Sequence record: OM386654.1
From: Escherichia phage vB_EcoM_ESCO9
Reading direction: 5' to 3' (one strand)
Length of the DNA: 64,000 bases
Made by a program: the position numbers and the translations under genes. Shown piece after piece: positions 14,351-39,798 of this stretch. The notes beneath the pieces are model-generated. The model had not been told where the DNA came from and ran no database searches. It was given only the letters and a program-made list of their open reading frames with translations. How positions within the stretch are numbered: position 1 is the stretch's first letter; every line of letters starts with the position of its first letter.

Positions 14351-14914
14351 ATGATATTTCACATAACTCCCTATCTTTCTGGAGATATTGGAAAAGGTAT
14401 CAATGACACAATAAGTGTCTTACCAGAAGATAGTTGGATTTGCCTAAGAGACATTGATACAATGTTTCTTCTTCCAGAACAACCTGCTTGGCTGGAATCA
14501 ATTGTCCGTTCAAATCCTGATTTTGATGTTCTTGGTGCATCTTGTAACAGATTGGGATCAACATATCAATTATTTAATAATGAAAGAAGTGAAGATCCGA
14601 ATATATTACACCACATTGAGATTGCAAAAAGAGCACATCTAGAATGGGGAAACTCAATAGAGGAAGTACCTACAGATGCTATCTTAGCAGGATTCTTTCT
14701 TCTCTTTCGTAAGAGTCTGTGGAATGAAATTCCTTTTGAGGAAAGATCAATACAGTTTGATATAATTTTCTCTAAAGCATTGCACGCTAACAATAAAAGG
14801 CTAGGTTTACTACGTGGGTTATATTTATTTCACACATACCGTTTAGGTAATGATGATCCTAGAAAAGCTGTTTCACACCTTTTACATTGTCAAGACATGA
14901 ATAAAATTATTTAA
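14351..14914 (+). CDS. Hypothetical protein, possibly glycosyltransferase-related
   Basis: 187-aa ORF with RBS GGAGGGAG directly upstream of three GT-like genes; no firm motif. Confidence 0.35.
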   Translation: MIFHITPYLSGDIGKGINDTISVLPEDSWICLRDIDTMFLLPEQPAWLESIVRSNPDFDVLGASCNRLGSTYQLFNNERSEDPNILHHIEIAKRAHLEWGNSIEEVPTDAILAGFFLLFRKSLWNEIPFEERSIQFDIIFSKALHANNKRLGLLRGLYLFHTYRLGNDDPRKAVSHLLHCQDMNKII

Positions 14915-14923
14915 GGAGTTATT

Positions 14924-15610
14924 TTGGAAAATACAAAAATTGGTGTTGGTGTTATTACTGTAGGTAAGCGTCCTCTTAAAGATTATCTTGTGACTGATCC
15001 TAGTGCTACTTTTGTTGTACAGTATGATCGGGAACGAAAAGGTGTTGCATATGCTCGTAATGAACTGATGAAAAAGTTTTATGATGAAGGATATGATTAC
15101 TGGTTTATTTTTGATGATGATTGCTATCCTGTTGTTCAAGGTTGGGAAACATATTTTGTAAAACAGGCGAAGGAAAATGGTTGGGATTTCTTTGGTATGC
15201 CTGAATACTTTAAAGATAAAGTAAAAGGTATTGAAGGGGAAGTGGTTATTTGGGAGCTAGGAATGTGCCAGTTTGGTATGTATTCCCGTGCAGTTATTGA
15301 GAAAGCTGGCTATTTCCGCTCATACACCCACGGCTATGGGTATGAAGATGCAGAGTGGATTCATCGCGTCCCACTGGCAGGTTTGAACCGAGGTATTCAA
15401 GGCGTACCATGTCCTATTCGAATTATGGCGTTTATCCATCCTGATGATGTATTTGGAGACAATCCTTTACCTTTTGCGAATCTGTCAAAAGAAGAGAAAG
15501 AACAGGGGATTGGTGTAAACTGGGAACAATATAAACAATCCCTGGAGGATCTTCGCAATGGTAAAACTTTTATCTCTTATGAGGAGGCTCAAAAATATGG
15601 TAAATCCTAA
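14924..15610 (+). CDS. Putative glycosyltransferase (GT-A-like, DxD-type)
   Basis: Acidic motif FIFDDDCYP resembling DxD nucleotide-sugar-binding motif; TTG start with RBS AAGGAG. Confidence 0.4.
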   Translation: MENTKIGVGVITVGKRPLKDYLVTDPSATFVVQYDRERKGVAYARNELMKKFYDEGYDYWFIFDDDCYPVVQGWETYFVKQAKENGWDFFGMPEYFKDKVKGIEGEVVIWELGMCQFGMYSRAVIEKAGYFRSYTHGYGYEDAEWIHRVPLAGLNRGIQGVPCPIRIMAFIHPDDVFGDNPLPFANLSKEEKEQGIGVNWEQYKQSLEDLRNGKTFISYEEAQKYGKS

Positions 15611-16571
15611 TACTCCTGTACTTAAGTGTGATAATAAGTTAGGCAGTGGTTGTGATTACCATCGTATTGTAATGCCATTTGCTGGAAATACGTTTAAACC
15701 TAAGAAAGACGTTTTAGTTTTTAATAGAGTGTATTCTCGTGGATCAGACGAAGTTAAACGCCTGAAGGCACAAGGTGTTAAGATTATTGTTGATTTAGAT
15801 GATTTTTATTCGCTTAATCCTGAACATTATATGGCTGGCGTATTTACTAATCACTCAAAGACTATTGTAGAGATGATTAAGTTAGCAGATGTGGTTACTG
15901 TAACAACAGAATACCTAGCTTACAAAATTCGTCATTTAAATCGTAATGTTGTCGTTATTAGAAACGCACTACCTTACGACGAAGGTCAATTTACTTTGAC
16001 AAAAGACCGTTATTCTGACACGCCTATTATTTGGGCGGGAGGAGCAAGCCATGAACCTGATTTATCTCTTGTAGCTAATACATTTGATGATACGCTATTG
16101 ACAATTGCAGGGTATGAAGTGTATCCTTCTGCACCTGTTGGAAATAATAGTCAGTATCTAACTACTGCGGAGTGGGTTAAAGTAAAACGTAAAATTCCAA
16201 ATGCACAGTATAAACCAGCTATTAAAAATTTAGGTGAGTATATGTCTGTGTATGACGGTCACAGTATTGCAATTGCTCCTCTGGTAGATAATGACTTCAA
16301 CAACTGTAAAAGCAATTTGAAGATTTTGGAAGCAGGTGCAAAGGGTCTTCCTATTATCTGTTCTCCTGTGCTGCCGTACTTCAATCCGGTAGATGCAAAG
16401 GCTGTTATCTATGCAGACTCTAAAGCATCTTGGCATTATAAAGTTGTCAAGCTAATGAGGAACCCTAGATACACAGAAGATCGTGGTATGATGCTTGCAG
16501 AACACGTTCGTCTTAATTATAATCTTGCAGATGCTAATGAACTGCGTCGTCAAGTTATTGAAAGTCTTTAA
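15597..16571 (+). CDS. Putative GT-B fold glycosyltransferase (paralog 1)
   Basis: C-terminal motif KSNLKILEAGAKGLPIICSP resembles the GT-B E-x7-E/LEAxAxGxP sugar-donor motif; RBS GAGGAGG. Confidence 0.5.
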   Translation: MVNPNTPVLKCDNKLGSGCDYHRIVMPFAGNTFKPKKDVLVFNRVYSRGSDEVKRLKAQGVKIIVDLDDFYSLNPEHYMAGVFTNHSKTIVEMIKLADVVTVTTEYLAYKIRHLNRNVVVIRNALPYDEGQFTLTKDRYSDTPIIWAGGASHEPDLSLVANTFDDTLLTIAGYEVYPSAPVGNNSQYLTTAEWVKVKRKIPNAQYKPAIKNLGEYMSVYDGHSIAIAPLVDNDFNNCKSNLKILEAGAKGLPIICSPVLPYFNPVDAKAVIYADSKASWHYKVVKLMRNPRYTEDRGMMLAEHVRLNYNLADANELRRQVIESL

Positions 16572-16582
16572 TAAGGAGCTAT

Positions 16583-17527
16583 ATGCCTAATATTATTCTT
16601 GACACACGCGGAAATGAAAAGTATAGTGTATGTGATTTTCATAGAATCATTTTGCCATATAAACGCAAACTGACCATTAATCCTAAGCATAATATTTTTG
16701 TGTTCAATGGAGTACCAACACGTGGAAAGCCAGGTTTCCTGGCTCTTAAACAACTTGGGTTTAAATTGGTAATGGATCTGGATGATTCTTTAATTATTCC
16801 TGAAGGGCATATGCTTGAAGGATTATTTGAAAATCAAATCCGAGATGACCTAAAATGGTTCCTTGAAAGAAGTGATCTTGTAACTACAACAACTCCGGCA
16901 TTAAAGGTTGAATTAAGCCAATACAATGATAATGTACATATTGTGCCTAACGGACTACCTTTTGATGAAGGACAGTTTGTTCTTACTAAAGATCGTTATT
17001 CTAAAAGTCCACTGGTTTGGGCGGGAAGTGAAACACATAAACATGATTTAGCAATTCTTCCTGATTTTGGTAAAGATTTAACTTTATGTGGATTTCGTAG
17101 AGATCACGAAGAGTTAAGTAGTGCTCAATGGTTGCAAATTAAAGAAAATATTCAACCAGATTGTGTTTATGAAGGTATTCGTCCTTATGAGTGTTATATG
17201 GAAGCATACGATGGTCATCAAATCTCCATAGCTCCATTAGTAAATAATCATTTTAATAATGCCAAAAGTAATTTAAAAATTCTTGAAGCTGGTGCTAAAG
17301 GTTTGCCACTCGTTTGTTCGCCACGAGAGAACTATTATACTGAAGAATTTAAAGATCTAATCTTCTTTGCTGATTCAGTTAAAGAGTGGAAAGATATTGT
17401 AGAATACTTAATCGAATCCCCTGATGTTTGTATTGAGAAAGGATTGGCTCTTGCTAAGTATGTAAGAGATAACTACAATATTGATGATTTAAATGAAACC
17501 CGCAGACTGCTTATCGAGGATTTATAA
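16583..17527 (+). CDS. Putative GT-B fold glycosyltransferase (paralog 2)
   Basis: Clear paralog of 15597-16571 (shared FVFNGV/DLDD, LTKDRYS, DGHxISIAPLVNN.FNN.KSNLKILEAGAKGLP blocks); RBS AAGGAG. Confidence 0.5.
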   Translation: MPNIILDTRGNEKYSVCDFHRIILPYKRKLTINPKHNIFVFNGVPTRGKPGFLALKQLGFKLVMDLDDSLIIPEGHMLEGLFENQIRDDLKWFLERSDLVTTTTPALKVELSQYNDNVHIVPNGLPFDEGQFVLTKDRYSKSPLVWAGSETHKHDLAILPDFGKDLTLCGFRRDHEELSSAQWLQIKENIQPDCVYEGIRPYECYMEAYDGHQISIAPLVNNHFNNAKSNLKILEAGAKGLPLVCSPRENYYTEEFKDLIFFADSVKEWKDIVEYLIESPDVCIEKGLALAKYVRDNYNIDDLNETRRLLIEDL

Positions 17528-22684: not shown

Positions 22685-23281
22685 ATGCTTACCGTATATG
22701 GTGAAGGTATTAATGATTTGGAAGGCGAGAGTACGCTACCTGGTAGTAAGAAACTAACGCCGCATTATATGAAATGGATGGCTATGTTGGGGAGGTGTTA
22801 CTCCCCTTGTCAACAAGAACGTGATCCTTGTTATAATGGGGTGACGGTTTGTGAAGAATGGAAACTGTTCTCCAATTTCTACTCTTGGTTGCAAACTTGG
22901 GATAACTGGGAAAACTTAGAACTTGATAAAGATATTATAGGAGGGAGAGTTTACTCTCCCGATACCTGTCTTTTAGTAACAGGAGATCTTAACAAGTTCT
23001 TAGCTTATAGAGTAAGTAAAAGATCTCATGGGACTATGGTAGGATGTAGTTACGAAAAAGATCGTAAAAAGTATAAAGCCCATATTCAACGTGATGGACG
23101 TGTTATAACACTGGGACGTTTTAATACTGAAATTGAAGCGCATCTTTGTTGGTTGAAGGCTAAGGCAGAACAGCTTACAAAATTCTTTGAAACTGAAGAT
23201 GAAAGAGTTGTTCCACATCTTAAAGCACTATATAATGAAATGCTTGAGCATGTAGAACAACACAAAGAGTGGACACGATAG
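22685..23281 (+). CDS. AP2-domain protein, possible HNH/homing-endonuclease-like
   Basis: YKAHIQRDGRVITLGRFNTEIEAHLCW resembles AP2 DNA-binding domains found in phage homing endonucleases; Cys/His-rich N-terminal half. Confidence 0.4.
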   Translation: MLTVYGEGINDLEGESTLPGSKKLTPHYMKWMAMLGRCYSPCQQERDPCYNGVTVCEEWKLFSNFYSWLQTWDNWENLELDKDIIGGRVYSPDTCLLVTGDLNKFLAYRVSKRSHGTMVGCSYEKDRKKYKAHIQRDGRVITLGRFNTEIEAHLCWLKAKAEQLTKFFETEDERVVPHLKALYNEMLEHVEQHKEWTR

Positions 23282-23289
23282 GAGAAAAT

Positions 23290-23883
23290 ATGAATATTGA
23301 AGATCAAAAAGTACGAGCTTTAGAAGTATTACGTATGTGCCAACTGGTAGATCCGTTTGCAATTGTAGCTGGCGGCGCTGTACGTGACTGGCGATTAGAG
23401 AAACCTGCGCAAGATATTGACATTTACTTGCGTATGCCTAACCACAATACACTCGTGCTAGTAGAGAAGTTTTTGATGTTGGGTGTTGGTGCACGTAATG
23501 TTAAACAACTTACTAAGCAAACAGAACACACTTATGCCGAACTACCACATTTGAAATGGGTATTTGAAGCATACTATAAAGACCTTAAGTTTAACTTTAT
23601 GATCATGGAAGAAGGTGTACGCAGTGAAATCGTATGGAACTTTGATGTAGCTATTTGCCTGTGTTACTGGGATGGTCAAAATTATGTATATCATCCAGAT
23701 TTTGAATTTGCACTGAAAACTAATATTTGTACTATTAATCACCGCTACACAGGTAAAGAAGCACACGTCCGTAAAATGGCAGAACGTTTCCCTATGTTCC
23801 GCTTTGTAAAAGACGTTTTCATTCCCAAAGAACCAGAAGTACGTACACTGGATTCATTTAACAACGAAGAATTTAAGATTTAA
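23290..23883 (+). CDS. Nucleotidyltransferase, polymerase-beta/CCA-adding-enzyme head-domain-like
   Basis: GGAVRDW...DIDIY matches the GGxVRD...DxD head motif of class II tRNA nucleotidyltransferases/poly(A) polymerases; only ~200 aa (no obvious body/tail domains). Confidence 0.5.
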   Translation: MNIEDQKVRALEVLRMCQLVDPFAIVAGGAVRDWRLEKPAQDIDIYLRMPNHNTLVLVEKFLMLGVGARNVKQLTKQTEHTYAELPHLKWVFEAYYKDLKFNFMIMEEGVRSEIVWNFDVAICLCYWDGQNYVYHPDFEFALKTNICTINHRYTGKEAHVRKMAERFPMFRFVKDVFIPKEPEVRTLDSFNNEEFKI

Positions 23884-24341: not shown

Positions 24342-25289
24342 ATGCCAGTAATTAATTCTGAAATCGATCGTCGTACTAAAAAAGAAGCATTCTGGGCTGA
24401 AGGTATCGTTGAATATGTCAAACTAGATAAGTTTGATGAAATGAAAGTCTCTTATATTAAGGTTGCAGGTCAGCCAGATAAGAAAATTGAATCAACTCAC
24501 AAAGCATCCCTGCTTATTAAAGAGAAAGGTGCTGGTGCTGATGATAAAGGTGTTTGGGTTAGCCTAGGTGAAGTTAAACTGCACCCAGAACATGAAAACC
24601 TGCAAGTTAAAGATGGTGATAAGTGGATTACTATCGAAAAAGGTGTAGAAGTAACTATGGATGTTAAACCTTCCGAATGGAATGGCAAAACATACTACAA
24701 CTCCTCTAAAGGTAAAATCACTGTTCTTTCAACAGAAGGTGTTCAGCAAGCACAATCTTCTTCAAAAGGTGGAAATAAGCCATCTAATAACGAAGGTAGC
24801 AAGCCTAACTACAAAAAACGTGATACCGTAGGGATTGAAACAGGACACGCTGTAAACGGCGCTCTGGAGCTTCTACGTGCTGGTGTGAAAGGTGATGCTT
24901 TCGACTTGGCTGGTGTGGTACAATCTGCAACTGTTAATCTGAAAGCAGAAATTGCTAAAGATCGTGGCGTTGATGTGACTGACTATGATCTTGGTGCTTC
25001 AGTTGGACACGCAATTCTTAACGCTTGTCGTGATCATACAGGTAAAACTGTAACGGCAGAAGAGATTATTGAAGCTGCTCGTGAAGTTCTTGCTTTGTCT
25101 GATAAAGTAGCTGCTGCTATCCGTGGAATGTCTACCCCAGTACAAGAAGTTAAGAAAGAAACTAAAAAAGTAGAGAAAAAAGAGCCAGCACCGAAAGAAC
25201 CAGAACCTGTTGTTCAAGATTTCGATGATGATATCCCATTTGCTCCTATTGGTTTGCAGTATGGTCGAAATTTCCTGCACTGTTTCTAA
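24342..25289 (+). CDS. Hypothetical protein (315 aa), possible DNA-binding protein
   Basis: ORF with RBS GAGGAG in replication module; C-terminal acidic tail (DFDDDIPF) reminiscent of SSB-type tails but no firm motif. Confidence 0.4.
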   Translation: MPVINSEIDRRTKKEAFWAEGIVEYVKLDKFDEMKVSYIKVAGQPDKKIESTHKASLLIKEKGAGADDKGVWVSLGEVKLHPEHENLQVKDGDKWITIEKGVEVTMDVKPSEWNGKTYYNSSKGKITVLSTEGVQQAQSSSKGGNKPSNNEGSKPNYKKRDTVGIETGHAVNGALELLRAGVKGDAFDLAGVVQSATVNLKAEIAKDRGVDVTDYDLGASVGHAILNACRDHTGKTVTAEEIIEAAREVLALSDKVAAAIRGMSTPVQEVKKETKKVEKKEPAPKEPEPVVQDFDDDIPFAPIGLQYGRNFLHCF

Positions 25290-25312
25290 TAGTTAAATAT
25301 TGTGTGAATATA

Positions 25313-25337
25313 AGGAGCCTAACGGCTCCTTTTCTTT
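25313..25337 (+). terminator. Intrinsic terminator (AGGAGCC-TAAC-GGCTCCT + TTTCTTT)
   Basis: Perfect 7-bp stem followed by T-run. Confidence 0.5.
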
Positions 25338-25349
25338 GAAGGAGATATA

Positions 25350-26081
25350 ATGAGCGAATTTGTAAACAACACCGCATTAAACTACCTGCAAACCCTCGAA
25401 AGCAATAGTGTAGATTTGATTCTTACTGACCCACCATATGCTATTTCTCGTGACACAAATTTTCAGTCTGGAGAGCCTACTGGAAAAGATACGGATAGAT
25501 TCCGTGTATCTTACAACTTCGGTGATTGGGATGTTGTAGATATTCCTTACTTTAAAGAAGTATTCAAAGAAGCCTACAGGGTGCTTAGAAAAGGTGGTAC
25601 TTGCATAGTTTGGTATGATATCTGGAAGATCCAGGAACTACGTGAAATCCTTGAACCGCTTGGTTTTCGTATGTTCCGTACCATCGAATGGATTAAAACA
25701 AACCCTGTACCCATCAACAGTGGTGTTAACTACCTTAGTAACGCTAAAGAGATGGCTATTGTTTGTGTTAAAGGTTCGAAACCAACCTTCAATGCTTCCT
25801 ACCATAAGGGTGTGTTTGAGTATCCTATCTATCAAGGAGCAGATCGTTTTCATCCAACACAAAAACACTTGACTTTGTTTTGTGACCTTATTAATATACA
25901 CACCAACGAAGGAGATGTAGTCTTAGACTTCTTCTCTGGAAGTGCAACAACACAAGTTGCGGCACTTTTAACAGGTAGAGAATACTTAGGCTGTGAAGCC
26001 GATGTAAATATTTTTAAGCAAGCGGAGGAACGACTAAATGAGTACACTGAACAGCAAAATCACCCTGAAAGCACTGATTAA
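25350..26081 (+). CDS. DNA methyltransferase, beta-class amino-MTase (N6-adenine or N4-cytosine)
   Basis: Motif IV DPPY (LILTDPPYAI) precedes motif I-like VLDFFSGSATT; no adjacent restriction endonuclease recognised. Confidence 0.75.
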   Translation: MSEFVNNTALNYLQTLESNSVDLILTDPPYAISRDTNFQSGEPTGKDTDRFRVSYNFGDWDVVDIPYFKEVFKEAYRVLRKGGTCIVWYDIWKIQELREILEPLGFRMFRTIEWIKTNPVPINSGVNYLSNAKEMAIVCVKGSKPTFNASYHKGVFEYPIYQGADRFHPTQKHLTLFCDLINIHTNEGDVVLDFFSGSATTQVAALLTGREYLGCEADVNIFKQAEERLNEYTEQQNHPESTD

Positions 26082-26469
26082 CAATGGTATGAACCTGGAC
26101 TCTGGTCTGTCTCCAAAGATTTCTATGGCACGACTGGAACAAGTTACTGGTCTTCGTCAAGTAAGTAATGGCGGTAAGATTATTCGTGATGACGCTGTAC
26201 CTTTTAATAAGTTTCAGATTGAACGTCATTACGATCCTGTAACTGCAAGCCTCACTGGTGTAACTTTCTCAGGTTATCGTACTGCCGGATACCAGCGTAA
26301 AGTTGTAGCTGAACGTATTAAGAGTCGCAAACAGAAAATTGCGACATTGAAGAAACTGGTAGAGAAAGATGTTTCAGAACTTCTTAACCTGTATGAAACT
26401 CTTGAGACAAAAGGTGAAGATCATAAACTCTTCTCTAAAGAAGATGTAAGCGTAATTTTCACTGATTAA
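26038..26469 (+). CDS. Hypothetical protein (143 aa)
   Basis: ATG overlapping MTase 3' end; RBS GGAGGAACG. Confidence 0.4.
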   Translation: MSTLNSKITLKALINNGMNLDSGLSPKISMARLEQVTGLRQVSNGGKIIRDDAVPFNKFQIERHYDPVTASLTGVTFSGYRTAGYQRKVVAERIKSRKQKIATLKKLVEKDVSELLNLYETLETKGEDHKLFSKEDVSVIFTD

Positions 26470-26473
26470 GATA

Positions 26474-26506
26474 AAAGAAAAGGAGCCTAATGGCTCCTTT
26501 TTGTTT
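26474..26506. terminator. Bidirectional intrinsic terminator at convergent junction (A-run, AAGGAGCC-TAAT-GGCTCCTT, T-run)
   Basis: Perfect 8-bp stem flanked by A-tract and T-tract between last plus-strand gene and first minus-strand gene. Confidence 0.6.
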
Positions 26507-28391
26507 ATGTAACATTGACTGTAAATCTGACAAGAGGTGATAACACGTCATTATCAGCATCATAGTGTGCAACATCAAACACTGTTGTACCTGCTGCAAA
26601 TCCATATTGTTCAACCTGATCTGCATAAGTAAATGTGTAAGTGTTAGTATCCAGGGTTTGTTCTGTAAGAATTGCTGCTGTGAGGACGTTTACATTTCGG
26701 AAGTAATGTTTAGTATATCCTGCTGGTTCCCAAGAGACAATTGCATCTTGGTTAGCTTGTCTTACAGCGGCTCCTCCTGTTGGAACAGACATATCAACCC
26801 AAACAGGTGACGCTGATGTTAAGTCTGTACCGTCTGCTGCCGATTTAGCAAGTTTTGTAGCTGCTGTTTGATATACAGAAGAAATATAATGGATACGACC
26901 ATCAATACCTTCTTCATAAACATAACCACTGTAACGTTCAGCACCATCTACCCAAGAACCAATTATAACATCATCACGTGCTGTAGAGATGGTTCTTTGT
27001 ACATTTCTGTACTTCTGCCAATCCACACCATTAACTTCTACACCATATAAATAAGAACGTCCTAGGATCTGCCAAACAATTTTTGCTTGAGAAGCAGGAA
27101 CTATTGTACGCATCTTATCAAAGATAGCTATCGTAGCATCATGGTAACGTGTAGTGTTACTGTACCTACCTGCAACAGTCGAAGATGCTGATACAGCATC
27201 ATTTTCACCTTGTCCCCAAATAATTGCTTTAACCTTACTTGCATAAGGTGTGACTTTAGTGATAAAGTTAGTTAAGCATGGCCCATCTGCTGTGTTATCC
27301 AGATCATACCAGTAGTTGTCTGGTGTTCCTGTTCCGGCTTTATCATCTGCATATTTATCTGCTGCTGATGATCCAGAAGCTGCATTTAACGGAAGAACTT
27401 CAGCATTTGCTAAACCACGTTGCGTAGCATATGCATTACGGGCTGTTGTGCTACTCATTGCTGCTTTATTTGCACCAGATAGTTCTGTAAAGTGTGCATT
27501 TACGTTATCTTGTCCAGCAAAGACAATAACTTCTTTAATGAATGAATCATCTGTAGCTATTGAGCTATTAAAGATAACGGCTGCTGCTTTGGTGCTCTTA
27601 ACGCTAATTTTAAGGTATGTTGGAGCAAACCCATAAAGAGGAATAGAGTCAGAGATATCAAAGTAGGCGTAAGTATTTGTGGTTGTTGTAGTCCACTGGA
27701 CACTATTATCACTTAAATCTAATACTTCTACAGTATAAGTATCACCATCTAGCGGATCAGTTACATCCCAAGCAACACGAACGTCTCCATAACTGTTTGC
27801 CACGGCTGTTACATTAGAAATAACAGGAATAGCATTAACACCTAAATAAGAACTATCAGAGGCCACAACTGTTCCTTGATACGTTGCAGTACAACCTATA
27901 CGGCAATTACCATCTTTAAGAGCAGTTATTAATCCTGTAGGGCTTACAGTAGCTACTTCTGGATCTGTTGTGGTGTACGTAATTACCATGTCTGGAAGAT
28001 CTTTAGCACCTTCTGGACTGATTGTAGCAACCAACTGTTGAGTAGTGCCTACATCCATAGCTGATAGACTTTCAGTGTACACGCTTAATTCTGAAGCATA
28101 ACCACCAGATTGATCAGTTAAGACAGCACCTAAATTATTTTTAGCTGTCATTATTGCATCAAAACCACCTTCGGCAACAAACTCCATCATACCACTATTA
28201 TCTATAACCATTTTGGTATTATCTGAAGATGAAAAAGCTATATCAAATAACGCACCATCTTCCGGTGAAACTGTGTATGTCAGTTGCTTTTTACTACCAA
28301 CTATTGCAATACCAATAGAGGAAGTGGTTATAGATGTAGCTGTTACTACTGAAGCTGATGTTGTTGACATAAATAAAGGAATAGGATACAT
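26505..28391 (-). CDS. Tail fiber/structural protein with Ig-like (Big_2-type) domain and possible SGNH/SASA-type carbohydrate esterase domain
   Basis: TYTTTDPEVATVSPTGLITALKDGNCRIGCTATYQG resembles Big_2; AIIWGQGENDA resembles sialate-O-acetylesterase-type motif; position at start of late structural block. Confidence 0.45.
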   Translation of the reverse strand: MYPIPLFMSTTSASVVTATSITTSSIGIAIVGSKKQLTYTVSPEDGALFDIAFSSSDNTKMVIDNSGMMEFVAEGGFDAIMTAKNNLGAVLTDQSGGYASELSVYTESLSAMDVGTTQQLVATISPEGAKDLPDMVITYTTTDPEVATVSPTGLITALKDGNCRIGCTATYQGTVVASDSSYLGVNAIPVISNVTAVANSYGDVRVAWDVTDPLDGDTYTVEVLDLSDNSVQWTTTTTNTYAYFDISDSIPLYGFAPTYLKISVKSTKAAAVIFNSSIATDDSFIKEVIVFAGQDNVNAHFTELSGANKAAMSSTTARNAYATQRGLANAEVLPLNAASGSSAADKYADDKAGTGTPDNYWYDLDNTADGPCLTNFITKVTPYASKVKAIIWGQGENDAVSASSTVAGRYSNTTRYHDATIAIFDKMRTIVPASQAKIVWQILGRSYLYGVEVNGVDWQKYRNVQRTISTARDDVIIGSWVDGAERYSGYVYEEGIDGRIHYISSVYQTAATKLAKSAADGTDLTSASPVWVDMSVPTGGAAVRQANQDAIVSWEPAGYTKHYFRNVNVLTAAILTEQTLDTNTYTFTYADQVEQYGFAAGTTVFDVAHYDADNDVLSPLVRFTVNVT

Positions 28392-37121: not shown

Positions 37122-37630
37122 GGTGCGTTCTCATTACTTTTTAAATCACGATATACAGCTAATTCCCCAAGGTCTACAGAACCCGCTGAATGCACAAGTA
37201 CAGCAGCACTAAGACTAATGGCAGTAGTACCTGGGGCAATATCAGCAGGTAGGGAAAGCGGGGTTTCTGTTACCAACTTGCATCTATATAAAACGTTGGA
37301 GATGTAGTTGTGGACCCTTCAATCGATATTTGTCCTGTTGAAGCATTAATGGTGGCCATTGCCATGCCAAATGAAACGCCATCAGCAGTGAACGGTACAG
37401 GGACATTTTTGGTTACTTTTGGTCTGCACCACCTTGGCAGCGTTGGAATTATCATAACTTGGTATTTTTGTAATCGACTGTAGAGTAAGGTCAGTGGCTA
37501 AAACCACTCCAGTGTCAGTAAGAAAGTTGGAAACTGTGCTTTTAACAGTCTTATCAGGTTGGTCTAAAACCAGGTAATCTGAACCATTAACTTTTGATGT
37601 TTCGGGTAAATTAGTAATTGTAGTTGACAT
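37119..37630 (-). pseudogene. Tail-fiber-related gene apparently disrupted by two frameshifts
   Basis: Three consecutive overlapping reading frames (37630-37382, 37455-37270, ~37280-37118) each encode protein-like sequence; first segment shares N-terminal motif with 42683-43156 gene. Confidence 0.35.
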
Positions 37631-37638
37631 TTTTACTC

Positions 37639-39798
37639 CTATATATAAAATTTTTGTGTTGTTACTAAATCTTCTCCAGATTTAGTGGCTAATGTAATTC
37701 CACTTATGGTGGCAATCGTAACATTTACCTGTTTAAGAGTGATATCTTGCAAATAGCAATTCAAAGGCACATTACCCATATAAAAAACTTGGGATTTTGA
37801 ATTAAGAACAGTTATTGAATCATGCATTATTTGTGGATAAGCCCATATGTATTGATATAAACCAACAAACTTCTGGTCATTCAATACAATATTACCTATA
37901 ATCATTTTCCACAAATATGTCCTATAGTTTGATTCAGGATCAAAGCCATATAATGGTGCTAGAGTTGCATCTGGAACAAACCCTGCAAGATAATGTATCT
38001 TATCATAACTAAAACCTAGTTGCTCATTAGGTATTGTGATAGCGTCAAAAGATCTTTCCATCTTACCTTCCAACAACCAATCATAACATTCTGAACAATA
38101 AAAATCAAAGTTTTCTGGGATATAATAATCTTTAGGGAAGTTAACAAATTCCATCATACCGTTACCTAAGATGGATGGTACAAATGGTAACAATGTAACT
38201 TTTGCCCCAGGATATGCTAATCTAGTATCTGTTGCAAATTTAGCAACACGCAGTCCTAATGTTTTAGATAGGAATGCATAATATTCATCATATGGTGTAC
38301 CAGTTTTATAATTCTTAACTGTACCAACATCTTGTGCATATAATCCAGTTTCATTATTAAATGCAACTTTGGTTGTATAATCATAAATACACGGTAGATT
38401 GGTAGCTGTATTATACCACCACCACGGTTCACCAACCTGAATAATAACCGGAAGATCATTAGCAGCGGATATAGAAGCTATCTTATTTATTACACCTTGT
38501 AAATAATTCATCCCTTCATCAATTGAAGGAGATAAAACATAACTTGGTGGCTCATAACCTGTAGCAGCCAGATCATCATTCCAAGTATGTTGTACCCATT
38601 CTACAGGACACACTGTACTCATAAGTTCAAAACTTAAGGAGTTCATTACTGTGTAGCCCATAGCTTTTGCATTAGCGTGGAAGTTATCAAACCAGGCTTC
38701 TGTTGCTGGGTTTAAATATTCTGTTCTGTTCAAAGCCCATTTATTAGAGCCAGCGTCCCAACTAAATTGATAATAATGTGACATACCATTATAGTGGTTA
38801 ATCATATCCCTATAACCTAATCTGTAGGTGTTAGAAATAACTCGCTCTGGGGTAAGGTTATACATATCATCATAAGATGTACACATTCTTATGGTGTGTG
38901 CTGGAACATTTAAATTACCCATATTCATCATACTATAACCCGTATCAGGTTCCAGTATGGTAAACTTAAAGGAAAGATCCTCATTGTCTACAGGAATAAT
39001 ATCTTCAATTTCTTGATACCTTGTGGAGATCAAGGAGAAGAACATATTATCTATCTGTGTAGTGTCAACAACAATATCATTTTCTGGCCCAGATTTTAAA
39101 TTTGAGAAATCTAATTTTATTGTTGCTGTTTTACCATCCTCTGAAACTTCTTCTGCATAAAAGTTTAGAGATACATAATGAACTGTTTCATCCTTCAGTG
39201 TCACTGTTAAGGATGGCAATAATTTTTCTTCTTTTAATCCAGGAACACCTTGACTAAGTTCCATTTTAAACCAAAGTTTCTCTTTACTTAAGTCAGAATG
39301 TTCTTGGTAGCCTAATCCTTTGTGATCATATTTATCGTAAGTTGACCAAATAATCCCAGCAAGACCAGCCACTGTCCTATTAACCATTCTTGCTGTGAAA
39401 GAATCACCATTAGAGATAATAGAACAACTTTCTGTTGCTTGAGAATCTATTGTCCAAAACTTAGGATCAAACATTCTAGACTTCACAACAGGCCAAGTTA
39501 GCGGGGTTGTATTCGATTGATCAGTCGTAATAACACAACGAATTTCTTCATTGATCATCATGTTATTTTGACTTATGCTAGTAATCTCAAGAGTAAAATA
39601 AAGATCTAAAGAGTTTGCCGGACGTTCATATACATCAACCACTACAGTAGCAGAATCTGCATCAGAAGGGAACGTTACTGTTCCCTGTTTAGCTACATAA
39701 TCTCTACCAGCGACCGCCGTTCCATCGACGGTCTTATAGCTGAATGAACTGGCATTTACTCTCGTATTTCGAGTTACAGTAAAAATAGCCTGTTTCAT
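37639..39798 (-). CDS. Tail/baseplate protein with N-terminal Calx-beta-like domain
   Basis: FSYKTVDGTAVAGRDYVAKQGTVTFPSDADSATVVVDV resembles Calx-beta motif. Confidence 0.45.
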   Translation of the reverse strand: MKQAIFTVTRNTRVNASSFSYKTVDGTAVAGRDYVAKQGTVTFPSDADSATVVVDVYERPANSLDLYFTLEITSISQNNMMINEEIRCVITTDQSNTTPLTWPVVKSRMFDPKFWTIDSQATESCSIISNGDSFTARMVNRTVAGLAGIIWSTYDKYDHKGLGYQEHSDLSKEKLWFKMELSQGVPGLKEEKLLPSLTVTLKDETVHYVSLNFYAEEVSEDGKTATIKLDFSNLKSGPENDIVVDTTQIDNMFFSLISTRYQEIEDIIPVDNEDLSFKFTILEPDTGYSMMNMGNLNVPAHTIRMCTSYDDMYNLTPERVISNTYRLGYRDMINHYNGMSHYYQFSWDAGSNKWALNRTEYLNPATEAWFDNFHANAKAMGYTVMNSLSFELMSTVCPVEWVQHTWNDDLAATGYEPPSYVLSPSIDEGMNYLQGVINKIASISAANDLPVIIQVGEPWWWYNTATNLPCIYDYTTKVAFNNETGLYAQDVGTVKNYKTGTPYDEYYAFLSKTLGLRVAKFATDTRLAYPGAKVTLLPFVPSILGNGMMEFVNFPKDYYIPENFDFYCSECYDWLLEGKMERSFDAITIPNEQLGFSYDKIHYLAGFVPDATLAPLYGFDPESNYRTYLWKMIIGNIVLNDQKFVGLYQYIWAYPQIMHDSITVLNSKSQVFYMGNVPLNCYLQDITLKQVNVTIATISGITLATKSGEDLVTTQKFYI

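Follow-up and report, generated by a model that had tools for sequence, protein, structure and literature searches.

We analysed 64,000 nt of the genome of Escherichia phage vB_EcoM_ESCO9 (sequence record OM386654.1; this whole stretch is called the window below), in particular the gene at 25350..26081, which encodes a beta-class DNA methyltransferase (methylase), and the small open reading frame (ORF) that overlaps its 3' end. As judged from the sequence, it is rather probable that the two genes form a cassette derived from a restriction-modification (R-M) system, with an active methylase that would convert the adenine of CATG and protect the phage DNA against CATG-specific enzymes. We infer the CATG target from the partner family of the methylase and from the genome composition; the m6A (N6-methyladenine) product, the protection of the phage DNA, and whatever the small protein may do are inferences as well. 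The methylase itself is a solitary phage methyltransferase, with no active cognate nuclease encoded alongside.

The methylase and its overlapping partner gene

The original prediction for this DNA, an orphan amino-methyltransferase of the DPPY type, was correct with respect to the gene, its class, and its location: the ORF on the plus strand matches PF01555, and DPPY precedes FxGxG. The features of the two genes are as follows, with M1.HpyAVI of Helicobacter pylori as the reference for the motifs:

25350..26081, plus strand: beta-class N6-adenine (amino) DNA methyltransferase, 243 amino acids (aa), equivalent to phi92 gp155 and muut gp036 (ORF, PF01555)
25428..25439, plus strand: codons of the catalytic motif IV, D27-P28-P29-Y30, aligned to DPPY (D29) of M1.HpyAVI
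25932..25952, plus strand: codons of the S-adenosylmethionine (AdoMet)-binding motif I, F195-S-G-S-A-T-T201 (FxGxG type), aligned to FMGSGTT of M1.HpyAVI
26023..26028, plus strand: GGAGGA ribosome-binding site of the small ORF, inside the methylase coding sequence (read directly from the sequence)
26038..26469, plus strand: small ORF, 143 aa, equivalent to phi92 gp154, phrog_20244; nuclease-less homologue of the IceA/NlaIII N-terminal domain plus a long helix (ORF, hidden Markov model (HMM) of ICEA partners)
26086..26295, plus strand: residues 17-86 of the small ORF, corresponding to ICEA profile columns 34-100, winged-helix-like (hhalign, alignments)
26284..26412, plus strand: predicted long C-terminal alpha-helix, residues 83-125, in place of the HNH domain (AlphaFold2 secondary structure)

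The methylase ORF starts with an ATG, and an AGGAG ribosome-binding site is located 5-6 nt upstream of it. The protein matches the PF01555 (N6_N4_Mtase) profile over the full length of the family (residues 21-227 correspond to profile positions 1-221 of 221) with an E-value of 1.9e-30 and 106.9 bits, compared with a gathering cut-off of 26.7, and it matches phrog_67 ('DNA methyltransferase') with 2.5e-56. In the sequence, FSGSATT (residues 195-201) comes after DPPY (residues 27-30), that is, the motifs have the circularly permuted order of the beta class. The closest relative with a solved structure is M1.HpyAVI (PDB 5hek/5hfj, deposited as 'DpnA'; E 1.1e-28 for 5hek), followed by CcrM, MboIIA, and RsrI, all of which are enzymes that generate N6-methyladenine (m6A). 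M1.HpyAVI is of similar size (232-240 versus 243 aa) and belongs to the same fold family, and the two proteins can be aligned from end to end with DPPY, H168, FxGxG, and E216 in register. Like M1.HpyAVI, the phage methylase has no separately folded target recognition domain (TRD). Mutagenesis of M1.HpyAVI identified D29 and E216 as essential, and H168, S198, T200, and F195 as contributing residues (PMC5173035). In the alignment, all of these residues, and also G197 among the cofactor and catalytic residues, are identical in the phage methylase, and the residues tested by mutagenesis are invariant or nearly so across 20 homologues of the phage protein. In these 20 family members, D, P, and P of motif IV never vary and the fourth position is Y or F; F195, G197, and T200 are invariant; and E216 and H168 are likewise conserved. 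The dN/dS values are 0.04-0.09 (versus orthologues that are about 80% identical), and 100% identical proteins are present in phi92-like phages. Taken together, the intact catalytic and cofactor residues and the purifying selection indicate that the gene is real and that the predicted enzyme is most likely active. The DPPY motif and the nearest characterised relatives, all m6A enzymes, point to m6A as its product. M1.HpyAVI is, however, clearly divergent in sequence, belongs to a different R-M system, and targets asymmetric sites of the GAGG type, whereas the pairing of the phage methylase family with IceA-type nucleases (see below) points to the palindromic target CATG.

More than 50 genomes already carry a methyltransferase annotation for the gene, with public labels that differ: 'methyltransferase', 'adenine-specific', 'site-specific DNA-methyltransferase', 'Dam-like N6-adenine methyltransferase', and 'type III restriction-modification system methylation subunit'. 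The type III label was rejected, because type III modification (Mod) subunits are proteins of at least about 600 aa that contain a central TRD and are encoded beside a Res helicase-nuclease. The methylase has 243 aa, no res-like gene adjoins it, and the Mod chain 6k0w matches it only locally, over 32 residues (E 0.006). The assignment to Dam and the alpha-class D12 enzymes ('Dam-like' in the BASEL records) was rejected as well, because a PF02086 match is absent and the motif order is reversed. The methylases of the genus Justusliebigvirus have already been called 'orphan type II' (BME3 paper, PMC12210895).

The small ORF starts 44 nt before the methylase stop codon (a 44-nt overlap), and its ribosome-binding site inside the methylase gene suggests that translation of the two genes may be coupled. 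Pfam searches yielded no ICEA match for the small ORF at E <= 0.01 and no meaningful family for it or its phage homologues; the homology became visible only with a custom profile of the partners of cellular methylase homologues. The HMM built from 33 cellular ICEA partners scored the small ORF with 24.6 bits, versus 10.7 bits for the best of 2000 shuffled versions of it. Among all 560 stop-to-stop ORFs of the window, the small ORF had an E-value of 4.2e-7 and the next best ORF one of 0.43, so that no ICEA nuclease was found elsewhere in the window. The comparison of the small ORF with ICEA by hhalign resulted in a probability of 95.8% with 7 small-ORF sequences, and of 96.6% (E 4.9e-10) with 28 sequences, and the reverse profile, built from the small-ORF family, matches six full-length ICEA proteins. 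The two families have the motifs NG..(I/W).R.D and (F/L).G in common. The ICEA profile positions from about 108 to 212, which comprise DHK.GR, N.AKR.HC..C, and C.GC (the HNH and Cys4 zinc site), have no counterpart in the small ORF, which is best described as a derived, nuclease-less offshoot of PF05315 and not as a member of this family. The original prediction had stated that the methylase has no recognisable partner endonuclease. An intact nuclease is indeed missing, but the next ORF appears to be derived from the partner endonuclease.

The AlphaFold2 model of the small protein consists of two helices, a beta-hairpin, and a 43-residue helix. Its confidence depends on the depth of the alignment: the pLDDT was 53 with 4 sequences, and the model became confident with 28 sequences (pLDDT 95.2, pTM 0.73). 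A Foldseek search of the PDB with this model yielded nothing significant (best E 0.23); the weak top matches were winged-helix DNA binders, that is, MarR-type regulators, the ORC1 winged-helix domain, and RTP. In a viral model library, the third match was a giant-virus protein annotated 'ICEA1' (probability 0.96). No solved structure was found for the ICEA family. For related HNH restriction enzymes, an N-terminal domain similar to a helix-turn-helix has been proposed to confer specificity (PMC5714182). Based on this prediction and the weak Foldseek matches, the small protein is read as a winged-helix protein, and it looks like the isolated DNA-reading domain of a nuclease. The family comprises intact frames of 125-143 aa in about 25-30 clusters at 50% identity. 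The dN/dS values of the small ORF (0.11-0.19, where estimable), and its conservation at 25-66% identity with invariant motif residues, indicate that selection has kept it intact and that it is not in decay.

Ancestry and spread of the cassette

More than 5000 homologues of the methylase were found. A 57%-identical cellular homologue is located directly upstream of an ICEA (PF05315) gene, on contigs of 140-380 kb. PF05315 comprises the His-Me-finger restriction enzymes of the NlaIII/IceA1 family (PMC5714182). Both characterised members, NlaIII and IceA1, cut CATG (PMC2816704; PMC13340068; PMC5714182), and NlaIII is blocked by adenine methylation of CATG (bioRxiv 10.1101/2022.07.20.500824). A scan of cellular genomes, with one genome per GTDB species, resulted in 70 bacterial and archaeal loci from taxa that include Clostridia, Alpha-, Beta-, and Gammaproteobacteria, Chloroflexota, Campylobacterota, and a methanogen. 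An ICEA homologue was present downstream of the methylase in 34 of the 70 loci, nearly always immediately downstream and on the same strand, and the two genes often overlap by 4 nt or more. Pfam confirmed these ICEA neighbours with E-values from 1e-25 to 1e-111, and the methylases next to them are 45-57% identical to the phage methylase. In the 36 loci without ICEA, no other recurrent partner gene was found. Neighbour joining placed ICEA-linked methylases in all major branches of the family tree and united the phage methylases in one nested clade. The linkage to ICEA in 34 of the 70 loci and the distribution in the tree indicate that the ancestral state of the methylase family is that of the M subunit of an IceA-type type II R-M system.

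On four metagenome contigs from ENA (L002-L005, 140-380 kb), the pair of methylase and IceA-type genes is located about 3 kb upstream of JetA/JetB/JetC (Wadjet), a neighbourhood that suggests a defence island. The CATG systems of Ureaplasma (UpaP162) and Fusobacterium (M.Fnn23.I) were considered as characterised relatives and dropped, because the respective papers give no evidence that their methylases belong to the same family.

The similarity to the NlaIII and IceA1-HpyI systems comprises the PF05315 endonucleases that adjoin the cellular methylase homologues, the homology of the small ORF to the N-terminal domain of these endonucleases, and, presumably, the CATG target. M.NlaIII and M.HpyI are alpha-class methylases of the D12 type, the motif order of which is not homologous to that of the beta-class enzyme. 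In H. pylori, iceA is located upstream of hpyIM (PMC13340068). In contrast, the order in the phage is M before R, the genes overlap, and the R copy lacks the HNH domain.

Directly followed by the small ORF, the methylase was found in at least nine phage contexts that differ in their flanking genes. The small-ORF homologues that follow a methylase have 128-143 aa and are present, for example, in two divergent phi92-like contigs (L076 and L077). In six further phage-like contigs the cassette has the following neighbours:

L078: PhoH and ClpP
L079: ThyA, DHFR, and RNR
L080: RNR
L082: NT5C and ThyX
L088: RNR
L090: T7-like gp5.9

No glycosyltransferase was called within 4 kb of the cassette in L078, L079, L080, and L082. 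In L092, the small ORF is also found behind an unrelated ORF. A word-indexed protein search with the small ORF retrieved only 4 clusters; when 1.84 billion representative proteins were searched exhaustively with a profile, 32 matches were obtained, nearly all of 100-143 aa, and a single 206-aa match is probably a full-length enzyme. No truncated ICEA form was found among the 70 cellular loci, and no full-length ICEA among 50,697 phage records. The truncated form thus appears to be confined to phage-like contexts. Pseudoalteromonas phage J2-1 (MF988720; our loci L084, L085, and L086, together the whole genome) is the one complete genome that encodes the small protein without a homologue of the methylase:

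112975-113388 of J2-1: homologue of the small IceA-N-like protein
102108-103007 of J2-1: unrelated alpha-class Dam-like methylase

Like Dam of T4 and P1 and the orphan methylases of lactococcal and staphylococcal phages (reviewed by Murphy et al. 2013, as cited in PMC12210895), the enzyme described here is a type II methylase without an active cognate nuclease. Phage orphan methylases are presumed to be derived from bacterial R-M systems and to be protective against host restriction. Unlike these other orphans, the methylase has retained an R remnant that is conserved under selection and moves together with it, and no earlier description of such a remnant next to a phage orphan methylase was found in the literature. 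Loss of the nuclease with persistence of the methylase is also known from the frameshifted iceA1 alleles of H. pylori (PMC13340068) and from the broken HNH site of HpyGORF49P (PMC2816704). However, those losses are recent, strain-specific frameshifts or pseudogenes, whereas the small ORF of the phages has a clean frame of 125-143 aa that is conserved down to 25-40% identity.

We propose the following scenario. The methylase would be a descendant of the M subunit of a bacterial IceA/NlaIII-type R-M system, the M-R gene pair of which was captured by a phage ancestor. The R gene would have shed its HNH half and kept the N-terminal, probably DNA-reading domain, which now carries a long helix, and the two-gene cassette would then have spread among unrelated phages. 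Produced along with the replication proteins, the methylase would most probably turn the CATG sites of progeny DNA into C(m6A)TG. The remaining CATG sites (about 1.2 per kb) would be shielded from CATG-specific IceA/NlaIII-type enzymes in the next host, and progeny DNA might also be resistant to other m6A-sensitive enzymes whose sites contain CATG. The depletion of CATG would act as a second layer of defence.

CATG depletion and alternative explanations

In the window, CATG is the most depleted of the 16 palindromes of 4 bp, and it remains depleted under a codon-aware null in which synonymous codons are shuffled and both the protein sequence and the codon usage are kept. Codons that end with C are half as frequent as expected in front of Met codons. 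The CATG sites that remain, about 1.2 per kb, are not clustered (5-15 per bin of 8 kb), and none is located within 25000-26600, that is, around the cassette. The observed and expected numbers of CATG sites, and the observed/expected ratios (O/E), are:

Window (64 kb): 76 / 212.5, O/E 0.36, z -11.7
Window, synonymous-codon shuffle null: 68 / 129.7, O/E 0.52, z -7.5
phAPEC8 (sister genus, without the cassette): 175 / 203.9, O/E 0.86
E. coli K-12 (50 kb): 145 / 202.9, O/E 0.71
Cellular loci with ICEA: 727 / 1013.0, O/E 0.72
Cellular loci without ICEA: 846 / 1100.4, O/E 0.77
L076: 4 / 28.3, O/E 0.14
L077: 13 / 27.1, O/E 0.48
L078: 2 / 23.7, O/E 0.08
L079: 24 / 23.2, O/E 1.04
L080: 20 / 26.0, O/E 0.77
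L082: 17 / 26.7, O/E 0.64
J2-1, whole genome (142,204 bp): 0 / 335.9, O/E 0.00, z -22

The comparison of cellular loci with and without ICEA is uninformative (0.72 versus 0.77). The values for the phages suggest that phages with the small-protein family have been under unusual selection against CATG, in agreement with the target predicted from the ancestry of the methylase. J2-1 also lacks any CCGG (95 expected).

CATG-specific protection is thus suggested by the IceA-linked ancestry of the methylase together with the strong depletion of CATG in the phage. Protection from host restriction, one of the two roles named in the original prediction, still appears to be the most likely role, and can be narrowed to protection from CATG-specific enzymes of the IceA/NlaIII type. 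The R-M systems that were used to challenge phages in the BASEL study are reported to have been EcoKI, EcoCFT_I, EcoRI, EcoRV, EcoCFT_II, and EcoP1_I, none of which is known to have a CATG target. A protection that is specific for CATG would be consistent with the sensitivity of phi92-like phages, because the tested systems, as far as reported, were not directed against CATG. In that study, phi92-like phages were described as 'exceptionally susceptible' to the tested R-M systems (PMC8594841).

Several observations weigh against the proposed CATG-specific protection. About half of the cellular homologues do not have an ICEA neighbour, and only two ICEA enzymes have been characterised biochemically. 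When the phage methylase is compared with ICEA-linked cellular ones, the identity is only 44-53% in the equivalent of the TRD of M1.HpyAVI (residues 132-165) and 74-81% in the other DNA-contact loop (residues 31-61); the divergence of the TRD equivalent makes a shift in specificity possible. In the codon-aware analysis, the O/E values of CGCG and CCGG are below that of CATG. CATG depletion is also not universal among carriers of the cassette, as L079 and L080 show. A search of 72,556 plasmids for full-length ICEA resulted in a single match, in Priestia, and this search gave no evidence for common CATG-specific enzymes in E. coli. Neither methylome nor restriction-digest data on phi92-like phages were found in the literature.

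The small ORF allows for readings in which the cassette does more than protect. It is tentatively conceivable that the cassette includes a dimeric, nuclease-less CATG reader, which would either mark or obstruct unmethylated host DNA or neutralise IceA/NlaIII-type enzymes, and, with the same reservation, that the phage would escape its own reader by methylating CATG, as in phi92-like phages, or by deleting every CATG, as in J2-1. One version, which we regard as unlikely, is that the small protein acts on unmethylated host DNA and that the methylase keeps it off the phage DNA. The reader might then, speculatively, act as a roadblock, disrupt the nucleoid, or recruit another activity. In that case, the pair would be an R-M-like module for the discrimination of self and non-self, and not a defence against host enzymes. 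Such self-protection would fit with the location of the methylase directly upstream of the small ORF in 9 distinct contexts and with the purifying selection on the small ORF and its confidently predicted fold. It would also fit with J2-1, which has the small protein, no such methylase, and not a single CATG in 142 kb, where 336 are expected: a CATG-free genome would gain nothing from the shielding of such sites or from the inhibition of a CATG nuclease. In addition, the stretch 25000-26600 of the window contains no CATG, which makes autoregulation via a nearby site unlikely. However, the CATG specificity of the isolated N-terminal domain is an assumption, the small ORF of L092 also follows an unrelated ORF, and J2-1 is a single case, in which the loss of CATG may reflect host restriction, because CCGG is gone too. 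We consider it quite improbable that the small protein serves as a decoy against restriction, with the methylase as a second layer. The decoy would form inactive heterodimers with IceA/NlaIII-type enzymes of the host or cover CATG on the incoming DNA until it is methylated, two routes that we regard as just as doubtful. The small ORF specifically resembles the N-terminal part of the very enzyme family whose site the phage avoids, its long helix in the AlphaFold2 model would be suited to dimerisation, and full-length ICEA nucleases were not found in the phage records, while the truncated form occurs in phage-like contexts. Yet a decoy would be pointless in J2-1, which has no CATG, and no solved structure that would define the dimer interface was found for IceA-type enzymes.

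Two further explanations assign the methylase to other tasks. Orphan methylases with regulatory roles are well known. The methylase could have an epigenetic or housekeeping role in replication, packaging, or the timing of expression, like Dam of P1, with the small ORF as an unrelated or decaying passenger. The gene closes the replication module and adjoins an ORF labelled SSB in some records, a position that would be compatible with such a role. However, CATG sites are neither clustered in the window nor present near the cassette; a regulatory site would also not be expected to be purged from the whole genome, and the conservation of the small ORF argues against a decaying passenger. We therefore regard this role as very unlikely. 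The original prediction had alternatively proposed that the methylase contributes to a modified-base programme together with a glycosyltransferase cluster. Such a cluster of four genes indeed exists, at about 14351..17527, 8-11 kb upstream of the methylase. One of its genes (14924-15610) has a match to PF20691 (TAGT, TET-associated DNA glycosyltransferase) that is below the threshold (E 1.6e-4, 22.1 bits versus a cut-off of 27.5), which hints that the cluster might act on DNA and not on surface glycans, and earlier authors speculated on a modification of DNA with dTDP-sugars in phi92-like phages. Sugar modification of the DNA is thus possible in these phages, but nothing ties the methylase to it. 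In bacteria its family is an ordinary R-M methylase, and methylation of adenine at N6 is chemically unrelated to the glycosylation of hydroxymethyl-pyrimidines. The methylase travels with the small ORF and not with glycosyltransferases (L078, L079, L080, and L082), that is, the cassette moves into backbones in which no glycosyltransferase was called within 4 kb; in the window, the primase/helicase and PolA genes stand between the two loci; and phi92-like phages are highly sensitive to restriction. A participation of the methylase in base hypermodification therefore found no support, and we regard it as extremely improbable.

Genome setting and significance

The window is 97.5-99.9% identical to phi92-like myophages of Escherichia, which belong to the genus Justusliebigvirus of the subfamily Stephanstirmvirinae. 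The gene order up to the cassette is: four glycosyltransferases, primase/helicase, PolA, an HNH insertion, a nucleotidyltransferase, a hypothetical protein, an ORF that only some records label as SSB, the methylase, and the small ORF. The location in the replication module had thus been assigned correctly. Downstream of the cassette, convergent tail genes follow, the first of which is at 26505..28391 on the minus strand. A consensus scan yielded two hairpins that resemble terminators:

25312..25331, plus strand: terminator-like hairpin directly 5' of the cassette (pattern match only)
26477..26502, both strands: bidirectional terminator-like hairpin that separates the cassette from the convergent tail gene

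The HNH endonuclease gene at 22685..23281, 2 kb upstream of the methylase and between polA and the nucleotidyltransferase gene, was considered as a candidate for the partner nuclease and rejected. It is of the homing type (phrog_953, E 8.5e-74), and it is missing from the 98-99% identical phage muut, relative to which 22688-23202 is an insertion. The gene looks like a mobile homing endonuclease and reaches with its 3' end into the start of the nucleotidyltransferase ORF. The nucleotidyltransferase (23269-23883, phrog_1614) has a weak match to the PolyA_pol head domain, and its counterpart in the divergent relatives L076 and L077 (1910-2583) a weak precomputed match to PF26128 (Gad2). A second segment that is missing from muut, 37122-37742 (about 620 bp), contains only short ORFs (61 and 82 aa) and is located between the gene for a small membrane protein and a gene for a 719-aa tail protein on the minus strand. 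Four unannotated records named 'Campylobacter phage', with C. jejuni as host (MG065639, MG065645, MG065656, and MG065689), are 99% identical to phi92-like coliphages over a 3-kb region, and their genomes are alike in size (about 146.4 kb), which might be explained by wrong names or by contaminated preparations.

The methylase alone is a known and ordinary gene: all phi92-like genomes carry an annotation for it, and it has been termed an orphan before. New, as far as we found, are the R-M-derived cassette with its conserved, nuclease-less partner, the predicted CATG target, and the matching avoidance of CATG. The cassette would clearly exemplify how a bacterial R-M pair can give rise to a phage orphan methylase while what is left of the R gene stays next to it. 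The prediction of C(m6A)TG tells against which host restriction systems the phage would, and would not, be armoured, which matters because the phi92-like genus has an unusually broad host range and is under development for therapy. The proteins of phrog_20244 and their relatives are a small uncharacterised family, apparently the isolated DNA-reading domain of a restriction enzyme, that has been selected in several phage lineages and is associated with an extreme avoidance of CATG. If the small protein is indeed an anti-restriction factor or a discriminator of host DNA, it would represent a new mechanism in the arms race between phages and their hosts, and a compact module for CATG binding might be obtained from it.

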